Position numbers and translations under genes: made by a program. Below the pieces are notes generated by a model, which was given only the letters and a program-made list of their open reading frames with translations, was not told the origin of the DNA and ran no database searches. A stretch of 44,068 bases of DNA. It comes from a virus (lineage: Duplodnaviria > Heunggongvirae > Uroviricota > Caudoviricetes). This document shows positions 10,242 to 12,859 of this stretch, piece after piece. The DNA is taken from the IMG/VR virus record IMGVR_UViG_2541047745_000010, one strand, 5' to 3'. The first letter of the stretch is position 1. Every line of letters starts with the position of its first letter.

Positions 10242-12229
10242 TACCCCACCCTCACCTGATTACTTCGCATGACCTGAGCATTTGCAGACTGTTGCCGACG
10301 TGCAACCTCATTACCGACAGCGTGCGGATCTCCGCCACCGTAAATGTGGTAGGTATTTTGCTGGTTAACCTCTGTCACTTTGCCACTAATTCCCGCCACG
10401 GCAGCCTTATTAATCAGCTCTCGAGAATAGATATTTCTTCCATTCTCATGCTGGATAATGCTGCTCATCAATGCTGACATGGTTTGCGGATCGCTCATAT
10501 TCAGGGCAGCCCGGGGATCCACTCCCAGTCGTTGCGATACAGCCCTGATATACGCGGTTGTGTTGTTATTATCAGACGCAGGTGCCCAGGTAGAGATAAT
10601 TTTCTCCACACTGTTTATTCCCCGTCCGGCGTACAGCATTAACTGACGAGCAAGAGCCCGTAATCCATCAAAAGCAGTTTCAAATCTGGCAAATCGCCCG
10701 CCCGGGCGTTCAAGAGAAGCCCCAGCCTGACCAGCAAAATTAAGATTTCCCGGATTGTTATTCCGTTCTCCTCGTTTCGTAGCCTGTGCATGTTGTTCCG
10801 GCTCATCATCACCAAACCAGCCGCTTACCGTCCGGCCCACACTGCGGGGATCAAATCCCCAGTGCTCTTTAATCCAGTCGGCAGTACTGTTAGCGCTGTC
10901 TGTAACCATCGGCATCGCTGACGGATTTTCGCTGCCCTGATTAAGTATCTGTTTGCCGATGCTGACGGCATCAGCCCAGCGGCCATCTTTGATAGCGTTG
11001 AGCAGGTCGGCGATCATGTTCAGCATTTTGCTGAATTCGCCCATCTGGTCGATGAAGTTGCTGAAATCCCACTTCAGGGACCATGATTTGGGGTCAATAT
11101 TGAGCAGTTTCGCCAGCGCTTTTACCAGGTCGTTAACGGTCGTTTTAAGGTCACGAACCATCTTCAGCGCGGCATCAACCTCCGGTTTCCACTTGCCCCA
11201 GTCAATCAGGCTGTCGCCGCCTTCCTTCCAGGTCTGATAGTCCTCCCACAGGAGGGCAATCCCCGCCGCCAGCGCGGTAATGAGGCCAATCGGCGACATC
11301 CAGAACGTACTGTTCAGAATGCGCAGCGCAATCGTCAGTGCGCCAAACAGCGAGATCAACTCCCGCGTTTGCTTATCCAGCGATTGCCACCAGGTGATGA
11401 GGCCTGATGTCCCCTCAATCAGTCTGAAGAACAACCGCCCGATAATATCCCCGAGCGCCAGAATGCCTTTTATGGCTTTCGTCAGGGTCTGCTCGATACG
11501 CGGGAAGTTGTCCAGGATATGGCGGCGCAGAGTGTCCAGCGAACCCGCAAGCCCACCCGCAAGATTAGAGCCGATTTTGTCACGGGCCATGCCTGCCATC
11601 GCGCCAAACTCACGCAGGGAGGTCATAAATTTGTTGGAGCTTCTGGCCGCCTCGTCAGCATTGAAGCCGATAGCTTTCGCCATTGCGCTGTACTGCCCGG
11701 AGAAGCCACCCACACCGCGACGCACAGCCATCAGGGTATTTTCGTCAATGCCCAGCATCTGCGCATACTGGTTAGCACGGTAATACGGCATGTCGCTGAG
11801 CTTCTGGCCTACCCCTGTAAAAATAGCGGCCATGTCACGCATGTTACCGCTGGCATCCCGTGTCTGTACCCCCAGACGATTCAGAAATCCCTCCGCCCCG
11901 GGATTATTACGAATAAACCGGGAGAGGTTTTCCAGAGAAGATCGCGCAGCGTCCACGCTGCCGCCAACCTGCGAAACCGCATAGCCAATAGACTGAATTC
12001 CCTGGACTGTCGCGCCAGTGCGCTGTGACGCCCAGTAAAGATTATCCAGGCCGGAGGCAATCTTAGCCGTAAAGGCCACCACGGACAGTGCAGCTCCTTC
12101 AACGGCCAACCCCATTTTGATGACATTTGCAGTTGTACCGGCGAGGACAGAACCGAATTTTTTTGCTCCAGCATCATCCACACTGAAGCCAAGCGAGACG
12201 AGGAAATCTTTAATAGTTTCAGCGTTCAT
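10241..12229 (-). CDS. tail tape measure protein
   Basis: 662 aa from ATG at 12229 (GGAGAGAGG RBS; track start 12250 is TTG); Ala/Gly-rich helical protein with a central hydrophobic stretch, after the chaperone pair. Confidence 0.85.
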   Translation of the reverse strand: MNAETIKDFLVSLGFSVDDAGAKKFGSVLAGTTANVIKMGLAVEGAALSVVAFTAKIASGLDNLYWASQRTGATVQGIQSIGYAVSQVGGSVDAARSSLENLSRFIRNNPGAEGFLNRLGVQTRDASGNMRDMAAIFTGVGQKLSDMPYYRANQYAQMLGIDENTLMAVRRGVGGFSGQYSAMAKAIGFNADEAARSSNKFMTSLREFGAMAGMARDKIGSNLAGGLAGSLDTLRRHILDNFPRIEQTLTKAIKGILALGDIIGRLFFRLIEGTSGLITWWQSLDKQTRELISLFGALTIALRILNSTFWMSPIGLITALAAGIALLWEDYQTWKEGGDSLIDWGKWKPEVDAALKMVRDLKTTVNDLVKALAKLLNIDPKSWSLKWDFSNFIDQMGEFSKMLNMIADLLNAIKDGRWADAVSIGKQILNQGSENPSAMPMVTDSANSTADWIKEHWGFDPRSVGRTVSGWFGDDEPEQHAQATKRGERNNNPGNLNFAGQAGASLERPGGRFARFETAFDGLRALARQLMLYAGRGINSVEKIISTWAPASDNNNTTAYIRAVSQRLGVDPRAALNMSDPQTMSALMSSIIQHENGRNIYSRELINKAAVAGISGKVTEVNQQNTYHIYGGGDPHAVGNEVARRQQSANAQVMRSNQVRVG

Positions 12230-12461
12230 TATCCTCTCTCCATTTCTCAATGCGCCGCTGGTTATCCGCTTTTACCGCCAGATGGTCATTCAAGAGAGCA
12301 ATATCGTACAAATCGACAGAGCCATCTTTAAGTGCTGTATAAGGAATTAACCCGGCGTCAACCGGATTGAGAAGGTAGGACAGCCCGTCCGGCAGGCTGT
12401 TAAACGTCAGCCCTGTTGCAGGCTCTGCGTCGTGCTGGTAAGGGGGGTAGGCAAAAAATTT
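12219..12461 (-). CDS. candidate -1 frameshift extension of the tail assembly chaperone (gpGT-like fusion)
   Basis: Alternate frame open from 12512 to TGA at 12219..12221 with no start codon of its own; slippery heptamer A_AAT_TTT at 12455..12461 lies in the zero frame of the chaperone. Confidence 0.45.
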   Translation of the reverse strand, partial: KFFAYPPYQHDAEPATGLTFNSLPDGLSYLLNPVDAGLIPYTALKDGSVDLYDIALLNDHLAVKADNQRRIEKWREDNER

Positions 12462-12859
12462 CCCAGCGAATCGGCGACCACCCGCACCACCAGATGAAGC
12501 ATGACCAGCAGGTCAATATCATCAAACATCAGTTCGCCCCGGGTAAATACCGGCACCCATCCGTCCATATGACGCCGCGACACCACCGCAAGACAGGGAT
12601 GAATAATCGCATCGGTGTCATCTTCGGTCAGGGAAGACAGTTCCTCAGCGATACGCGGGAGCATGGTTTCAAACACCGGTTTTAACTGCTCGAATTTCAC
12701 GGTGTCGATTTTGCCGTCAGCAGGCAAACGGGAGCGAATGCTCCCGAAATCTGACATCATTCCCGCCAGTACCGGCAGAAGTTTGCGGGTCACTTTCAAC
12801 TGGTCAAAAACGCTGAGTTTTGCCACGCGATATTTCACGCCTTTGATTTCGAATTCCAT
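12407..12859 (-). CDS. tail assembly chaperone (gpG-like)
   Basis: 150 aa between the tube and tape measure genes; ATG with GGGGAG RBS. Confidence 0.7.
   Translation of the reverse strand: MEFEIKGVKYRVAKLSVFDQLKVTRKLLPVLAGMMSDFGSIRSRLPADGKIDTVKFEQLKPVFETMLPRIAEELSSLTEDDTDAIIHPCLAVVSRRHMDGWVPVFTRGELMFDDIDLLVMLHLVVRVVADSLGNFLPTPLTSTTQSLQQG

Follow-up and report, generated by a model that had tools for sequence, protein, structure and literature searches.

A contractile-tailed E. coli prophage with probable programmed -1 ribosomal frameshifting in its tail assembly chaperone gene

The paradigm of frameshifting in long-tailed double-stranded DNA phages is the gpG/gpGT pair of lambda, which arises at G_GGA_AAG (Xu, Hendrix & Duda 2004; via PMC5009743). 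In lambda, gpG and gpGT are made at a ratio of about 30:1, both forms bind the tape measure, and the T part of the longer one binds the major tail protein (PMC5009743). In P2, the E/E+E' frameshift takes place at TTTTTTG, read in phase as T_TTT_TTG (Christie et al. 2002, as described in PMC3091744), and P2-like phages shift 2-3 times more often than lambda (PMC5009743). For phage tail frameshifts, downstream RNA structures are reported to be infrequent, and P2 and P2-like phages lack them (PMC3091744). In a 2025 paper, a -1 frameshift in the chaperone gene was proposed at a conserved GTTTTT in Pakpunavirus/Vandenendeviridae and Andersonviridae (PMC12846349). Here, we analyzed the tail assembly chaperone gene in IMG/VR virus record IMGVR_UViG_2541047745_000010, a tailed-phage sequence of 44,068 nucleotides (nt). 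The whole of this stretch is referred to as the window; all coordinates are counted on it, and the genes of the tail module all lie on its minus strand. Comparison with related loci indicates that this chaperone gene, which belongs to a temperate, contractile-tailed SEN34/Mulock-like E. coli prophage, very probably contains a programmed -1 ribosomal frameshift. This reading is drawn from the gene order, the lack of an independent start for the second frame, the fixed slippery codons, the conserved and selected -1 frame, the DUF6889 family, the distant phages and an existing annotation in phage Mulock.

As in lambda, two overlapping open reading frames (ORFs) lie between the major tail (tube) and tape-measure genes, the second of them in the -1 frame and startless. 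The ORFs, together with Pfam and PHROG matches, give the minus-strand order sheath, tube, chaperone, -1 ORF and tape measure, so that the gene pair sits between a tube gene (PF11681) and a tape-measure gene (PHROG 2276), as G/GT-type chaperones require. The zero-frame product, i.e., the short form of the chaperone (12407..12859), has 150 residues followed by a stop; it matches Pfam PF21822 (Phage_TAC_15) over residues 6-138 (E 3.6e-30; 105.5 bits, above the 22-bit gathering threshold) and PHROG 1688, "tail assembly chaperone" (E 1e-64). The -1 ORF (12219..12512) follows a stop at 12515..12513 and consists of 97 open codons (12512..12222) and a TGA at 12221..12219, its end overlapping the tape-measure gene, which starts with the ATG at 12229, by 11 nt. 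It contains neither ATG nor GTG, and TTG is found only deep inside, with 30 and 24 codons remaining. Between the chaperone stop and the tape-measure gene, 177 nt are left without a conventional gene.

The slippery tract G_GGA_AAT_TTT_TTG (12452..12464) comprises three overlapping heptamers in phase with the chaperone frame, G_GGA_AAT at 12464..12458, A_AAT_TTT at 12461..12455 and T_TTT_TTG at 12458..12452. A preliminary description of the window had pointed to the middle one, placing it in the zero frame 16 codons before the chaperone stop, and had reported a startless alternate frame, open from 12512 to the TGA and overlapping the tape-measure start, that would give a fusion of about 213 residues. 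Translation of 12515..12219 confirmed the open frame, the codons CTG GGA AAT TTT TTG place the heptamer in phase, the distance to the stop is as described with the Phe codon being residue 135, and the fusion comes to 135 + 78 = 213 residues. The coding sequence of this conceptual long form is join(12859..12455,12455..12219), or has its junction at 12452; the protein would consist of the chaperone body (residues 1-135/136) and an extension of 77-78 residues with the DUF6889 domain at its end. The same description had likened the arrangement to the G/GT type of tailed phages, and both the gene order and the comparison across relatives support this likeness.

The correspondence with lambda extends to the shift site, G_GGA_AAT being one base off lambda's G_GGA_AAG; however, the codon in the A site of this lambda-like heptamer would be AAT, not AAG. 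The locus further differs from lambda in showing no detectable similarity to gpG or gpT, its only Pfam matches being PF21822 and PF21829, and in having a sheathed, contractile tail module, an overlapping set of three heptamers and, upstream of them, a conserved Shine-Dalgarno (SD)-like element. With P2 it shares a myovirus tail chaperone pair, the identical T_TTT_TTG and the absence of a downstream RNA structure, whereas the P2 products have 91 and 142 residues, compared with 150 and 213 here, and further slippery triplets precede T6G here. In Pfam searches of the chaperone and the fusion at E <= 0.01, the P2 gpE family was not matched, only PF21822 and PF21829 being returned; the T_TTT_TTG shared with P2 is a mechanistic resemblance, not membership.

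Within the window by itself, the case for a frameshift is weak, and its significance comes from comparison across relatives. A -1 frame open for at least 180 nt past the stop is found for 28 of the 87 window ORFs of at least 100 residues, mostly because the next gene lies in that frame; as a within-window statistic, openness past the stop was rejected because it does not discriminate. The structural genes contain 3.4 in-phase X_XXY_YYZ heptamers per 1000 codons, which corresponds to an expected number of about 0.12 for the 35 codons of the overlap. Scanning one genome for each species yielded 80 loci with chaperones 37-84% identical to the one studied here, from Enterobacter, Citrobacter, Pantoea, Photorhabdus, Serratia, Erwinia, Arsenophonus and other Enterobacterales, of which 76 distinct loci remained after duplicates and two broken copies were dropped. 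The counts below refer to these 76 loci unless otherwise specified.

Across this set, T_TTT_TTN is kept in 75/76 and A_AAT_TTT in 71/76 loci. The preliminary description had named a lack of conservation of the slippery site in homologous phages as a ground for refutation, and the site is in fact conserved. The conservation reaches synonymous positions: the Asn codon of the tract is AAT in 72/72 cases and the Phe codon TTT in 75/75, the Leu codon is TTG in 69/70 and never CTN, compared with 12% TTG elsewhere in the same genes, and the Gly codon is GGA in 71/76, compared with 9% elsewhere in these genes. An Asp codon three positions upstream varies freely (GAT 48, GAC 28). Synonymous choice in the slippery codons is fixed and runs counter to the codon usage of the family itself. 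The T6 tract is present in more than 80 close relatives and in the 315 complete E. coli genomes that carry the region.

The -1 extension behaves as a protein-coding sequence. In nearly all loci, the -1 frame stays open for 185-197 nt past the chaperone stop, whereas the +1 frame meets a stop after as few as 7 or as many as 181 nt, and the extension has 76-78 residues in 72/76 loci. Past the chaperone stop, pairwise differences by -1 codon position are 0.29/0.25/0.56, and the NG86 ratio of nonsynonymous to synonymous substitution rates (dN/dS) is about 0.20. Inside the overlap, the corresponding differences are 0.36/0.30/0.53, with the most variable position being the second position of the zero frame; since variability peaks there, constraint acts on the -1 frame from the slip site on, as would be expected if ribosomes entered it from the chaperone frame. 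Purifying selection is seen in the -1 ORF, its overlapping part included. No start codon in the -1 frame is conserved across the 76 loci, and about half of them lack ATG, GTG or TTG before +90 nt. Four irregular copies depart from the common layout and are probably degraded prophages or assembly errors: the -1 frame continues for 725 nt into unrelated sequence in Izhakiella australiensis (L143) and ends after 68 nt in Enterobacter sp. R1 (L117), and the chaperone ORF itself is interrupted in two loci of Apirhabdus apintestini (L093 and L162).

Pfam family PF21829 (DUF6889) covers the final 39 residues of the conceptual fusion (E 9e-20; residues 173-211, 12228..12344). In RefSeq, the PGAP annotation (NZ_CP124436.1) lists 12383..12219 as a separate 54-residue "DUF6889 family protein" with a CTG start. 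When compared with 5.8 billion proteins, the extension retrieved only short pieces of 43-78 residues with inconsistent N-termini, an inconsistency characteristic of gene callers that guess a start for an ORF lacking one. Many of these pieces (P0122, P0124, P0125, P0127, P0129 and others) are called "NTP pyrophosphohydrolase" in NCBI, a name without support in the sequence that looks like a propagated mis-annotation. The sole full-length match to the fusion, P0001, has 213 residues and both Pfam domains and comes from one Logan contig (SRR23924998; L166), in which positions 1895..1915, corresponding to 12464..12452 of the window, carry a run of seven T's (T7) and encode the junction SLGNFFAY. 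This T7 could be a homopolymer error or a real mutant making the long form only; P0001 was rejected as evidence of a natural fused chaperone because it is indistinguishable from a homopolymer error, and it is used only to illustrate the fusion. Used as a query against PDB sequences, the fusion gave no meaningful match (best E 0.78).

A stretch of 901 bases around the site occurs with 100% identity in a prophage of E. coli AVS0790, and of 5426 complete E. coli genomes, 315 carry similar sequence. Among the related phages are Escherichia vB_EcoM-606R2 (97%), Yersinia YP3 (84%) and Salmonella SEN34 of the genus Brunovirus (78%). In Klebsiella phage Mulock (MN098327.1), whose chaperone is 57% identical, the joined frameshift product is already annotated, CPT_Mulock_014/015 being recorded as "tape measure chaperone" and "frameshift product". 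Mulock is a true homologue with the same GGGTGGTC...GGGAAATTTTTTG cassette and -1 extension, the latter being 188 nt long and ending on the tape-measure start; it differs in host and phage, and the frameshift annotation of its record is undiscussed in the genome announcement. When the chaperone was compared by tblastn with 50,697 phage records, the alignment ended at residue 134-135, i.e., at the slip codon, in 31 of the 33 matches listed. Phages with chaperones only 27-38% identical keep both Phage_TAC_15 and a -1-frame DUF6889 (E 7e-9 to 2e-20). At the homologous position, Burkholderia BgManors32 has C_CCT_TTT, Acinetobacter Ab105-1phi has A_AAT_TTT followed by A and hence only four T's, Providencia PSTCR3 has T_TTT_TTT, Edwardsiella vB_EpM_ZHS has only the tetramer T_TTT, and Bordetella vB_BaM-IFTN9 has G_GGA_AAT and T_TTC. 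None of the papers in the literature collection searched mentions DUF6889, PF21829 or Phage_TAC_15.

Upstream of the tract, the SD-like element GGGTGGTC (12476..12483) is complementary to the 3' end of 16S rRNA and lies 11, 14 and 17 nt from the three heptamers. Its site has a mean duplex energy with the 16S rRNA 3' end of -9.6 kcal/mol, compared with a background of -2.0, and within a 360-nt span no other site shows stronger anti-SD complementarity over the 76 loci. Synonymous recodings based on the codon usage of the family pair more weakly than the element by 4.1 kcal/mol, whereas ten control windows range from -0.5 to +0.4, and the Arg codon within it is CGG in 74% of loci compared with 8% elsewhere in these genes. 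The 11-17 nt spacing falls inside the range of 6-17 nt used for SD stimulators (PMC4066793), which are established for dnaX and many insertion sequence (IS) elements (PMC5009743), and the element is conserved beyond coding constraint. These features are suggestive of a 5' frameshift stimulator. The dnaX and IS3/IS911 cassettes (PMC5009743, PMC4066793) likewise combine an anti-SD element 6-17 nt upstream with synonymous-site selection; however, dnaX and most IS elements also use a downstream hairpin or pseudoknot, looked for 5-9 nt after the heptamer and not detectable here, and their heptamer is A_AAA_AAG.

Four loci of the Kalamiella/Erwinia clade (L125, L153, L154 and L156) have lost both G_GGA_AAT and A_AAT_TTT, with GGC GGT or GGT GAT preceding TTT TTG. 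Their anti-SD match is -9.3 to -10.1 kcal/mol, and it is formed by a canonical GGAGG 13 nt upstream of T_TTT_TTG rather than by GGGTGGTC at 17 nt. This pattern, which amounts to a single evolutionary event in one clade, is consistent with co-adjustment of the candidate stimulator and the shift site. In the spacer GAT TCG CTG (12464..12476), the Ser codon is TCG in 58% of loci, compared with 12% elsewhere in the gene, and the Leu codon is CTG in 86%; nucleotide-level constraint may extend over the whole cassette, spacer included.

With regard to the heptamer used, A_AAT_TTT and T_TTT_TTG are both in play and may perhaps both be used. For the latter, T_TTT_TTN is the best conserved in the close family (75/76 vs 71/76), and T_TTT_TTG is the frameshift sequence of P2 (PMC3091744). 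For the former, the common denominator of the deeper family is a T-preceded Phe codon, i.e., Phe-135 in the A site, and H_HH.U_UU.Y, which includes A_AAU_UUU, is among the most efficient classes in a systematic study in E. coli (PMC4066793). U_UUU_UUG is absent from the list of that study, in which the tetramers U_UU.C and U_UU.U come directly after A_AA.G (PMC4066793). The two junctions predicted are one residue apart, NFFAY (NFFAYPPYQ) vs NFLAY (NFLAYPPYQ): ...SLGNFFAYPPYQ would result from slippage at either A_AAT_TTT or G_GGA_AAT, and equally from an additional U in the mRNA, and ...SLGNFLAYPPYQ from slippage at T_TTT_TTG. Stops in the -1 frame at the Asn/Asp codon, present in L150 and L153, were considered as proof of T_TTT_TTN and dropped. 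Because a triplet that occupies only the P site after the slip is not decoded, these two loci restrict the A-site codon to Phe-135 or Leu-136 and make no choice between them.

The same 213-residue fusion, with the junction NFFAY, would result from ordinary translation if RNA polymerase added one U on the T6 run (12458..12453). Such transcriptional slippage would account for a run that is almost invariant in the close family; the T7 DNA variant (L166/P0001) encodes the exact fusion as one ORF, so that one extra T suffices; and the product is identical to that of a ribosomal slip on A_AAT_TTT. However, the cited bacterial cases of slippage have long runs of 9 A or T (PMC5009743), compared with which the T6 here is short. 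The two-frame layout is, moreover, kept with four T's in the Acinetobacter (AAATTTTA), Burkholderia (CCCTTTTA) and Edwardsiella (GATTTTA) phages and without any T run in the Bordetella phage (AATACTTTC), the distant homologues always having an in-phase heptamer or tetramer of the ribosomal type. A selected upstream anti-SD element, too, suits ribosomes and not RNA polymerase. We therefore regard transcriptional slippage as improbable.

A still less probable explanation is that the DUF6889 ORF is an independent small gene, translated unfused from a non-canonical start such as the CTG at 12383 that RefSeq gives for its 54-residue protein. PGAP and other pipelines annotate it in this way in hundreds of genomes, but the annotated starts are inconsistent, giving 43-78 residues for one region, and about half of the loci offer no -1-frame ATG, GTG or TTG before +90 nt, none of those present being at a conserved position. 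The conservation (ARTPRQRD... LPDG) extends upstream of every annotated start to the slip site, the -1 frame is more constrained than the zero frame in the overlap, and the ORF always lies in the -1 frame relative to the chaperone, a constancy for which an independent gene would have no need. That the locus is not functional, its features being due to chance, to decay of a pseudogene or to a homopolymer sequencing error, is hardly conceivable. Open -1 frames are indeed common in the window (28/87 ORFs), and a single in-phase heptamer in the overlap has a chance of about one in ten; nevertheless, the T6 tract is found in at least 80 close relatives and 315 complete E. coli genomes, and across genera and bacterial classes the -1 ORF retains its length and shows purifying selection.

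Several observations weigh against a programmed ribosomal frameshift or lessen the force of the evidence for it. The 76 loci are related to one another, and the counts made on them are not fully independent. One homologue, a locus of Salmonella enterica strain s1 (CP191473.1; L104), has a broken T run (GGA AAT ATT TTG), the only such case among the 76 loci, and has also lost the SD-like element (CGC GTT GTG, -2.9 kcal/mol) while its -1 ORF is intact at 188 nt; this is either a decaying prophage or a case in which G_GGA_AAT alone is in use. The SD-like element falls in a conserved Arg-Val-Val stretch. A downstream stimulatory structure, which the preliminary description had proposed to look for, was not found by folding, shuffling or Rfam: the fold of 12451..12350 gave z = -0.46 relative to shuffled sequences, the 60 nt after the tract gave a median z of +0.13 across the 76 loci with only 1% below -2, and Rfam returned no match at E <= 1. 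Finally, an AlphaFold2 model of P0001, built from a 53-row alignment, had a mean pLDDT of 43 and a pTM of 0.30, too poor to inform on the fold of the extension.

In the scheme that we infer, which covers the occurrence and efficiency of the slip, the choice of heptamer, the part played by the SD-like element and the partners bound, most ribosomes would translate 12859..12407 and release the 150-residue chaperone. A minority would move one base back on G_GGA_AAT_TTT_TTG (12464..12452), most likely with Phe-135 UUU or the next codon, UUG, in the A site, and probably aided by pairing of the 16S rRNA 3' end with GGGUGGUC 11-17 nt upstream. The slipped ribosomes would then read the -1 frame as far as the TGA at 12221..12219, producing a minor 213-residue long form. 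If the analogy with lambda gpG/gpGT holds, the tape-measure protein (12229..10241) would be coated by both forms, and the extension of the rare long form, with its DUF6889 domain, would recruit the tube protein (13303..12863), starting its polymerisation around the tape measure; the tube protein is, on this analogy, the probable partner of the C-terminal domain of the long form. Neither form would be expected to stay in the virion. Since mature lambda virions contain neither chaperone form (PMC5009743), mass spectrometry of virions would probably fail to detect the fusion.

A more elaborate proposal, which we put forward tentatively and hold to be possible but somewhat short of an even chance, is that the cassette goes beyond the "heptamer only" tail sites. 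It would pair a selected internal SD-like stimulator (GGGUGGUC) with a 13-nt run of three heptamers giving successive chances to slip, and DUF6889 would be the equivalent of a "T-domain" that recruits tube proteins of the KPP10-ORF10/DUF3277 type in a widely distributed group of contractile tails.

The phages of the 2025 report (PMC12846349) belong to a related contractile-tail lineage, the tube protein here being in the KPP10 ORF10 Pfam family. In those phages, as here, the downstream piece is routinely mis-annotated as hypothetical, a T-run site lies at the 3' end of the short form, and the argument is made from conservation of the frame. They are, however, large lytic phages with the motif GTTTTT, compared with AAATTTTTTG here, and are likened to this locus by arrangement. 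The present case is an unexceptional representative of the class formed by lambda G/GT and P2 E/E+E', an expected tail-assembly device, and the finding leaves the biological picture unchanged. The frameshift device and the Mulock annotation were already known; the new details are the conserved SD-like element and the lack of a downstream structure, and the assignment of DUF6889 is a useful by-product. The long chaperone form is missing from RefSeq E. coli genomes and from most phage records, where its C-terminal half is listed as an orphan gene, and reading DUF6889 as the frameshift extension of Phage_TAC_15 chaperones would give this Pfam family a role and remove a spurious small gene. The homologous codon also presents a natural series of shift sites, i.e., A_AAT_TTT_TTG, C_CCT_TTT, T_TTT_TTT, T_TTT and G_GGA_AAT, which together with the candidate 5' SD stimulator could serve in studies on the tuning of low-level frameshift ratios.

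Upstream of the chaperone gene on the minus strand, the tail sheath protein (13314..14459; 381 residues) matches Pfam PF11863 (E 2e-101) and PHROG 205, "tail sheath" (E 2e-135), and the presence of a sheath gene makes this a contractile-tail module. The tail tube protein (12863..13303; 146 residues) matches Pfam PF11681, KPP10_Orf10 / Phage_Tube_PhiTE (E 9e-61). Downstream, the tape measure protein with a C-terminal lytic transglycosylase region (10241..12229, with the RefSeq start; 662 residues) matches PHROG 2276, "tail length tape measure protein" (E 6e-282). At codon 22 of the tape-measure gene, GCA AAA AAA TTC contains an in-phase A_AAA_AAA run (12158..12164, minus strand).

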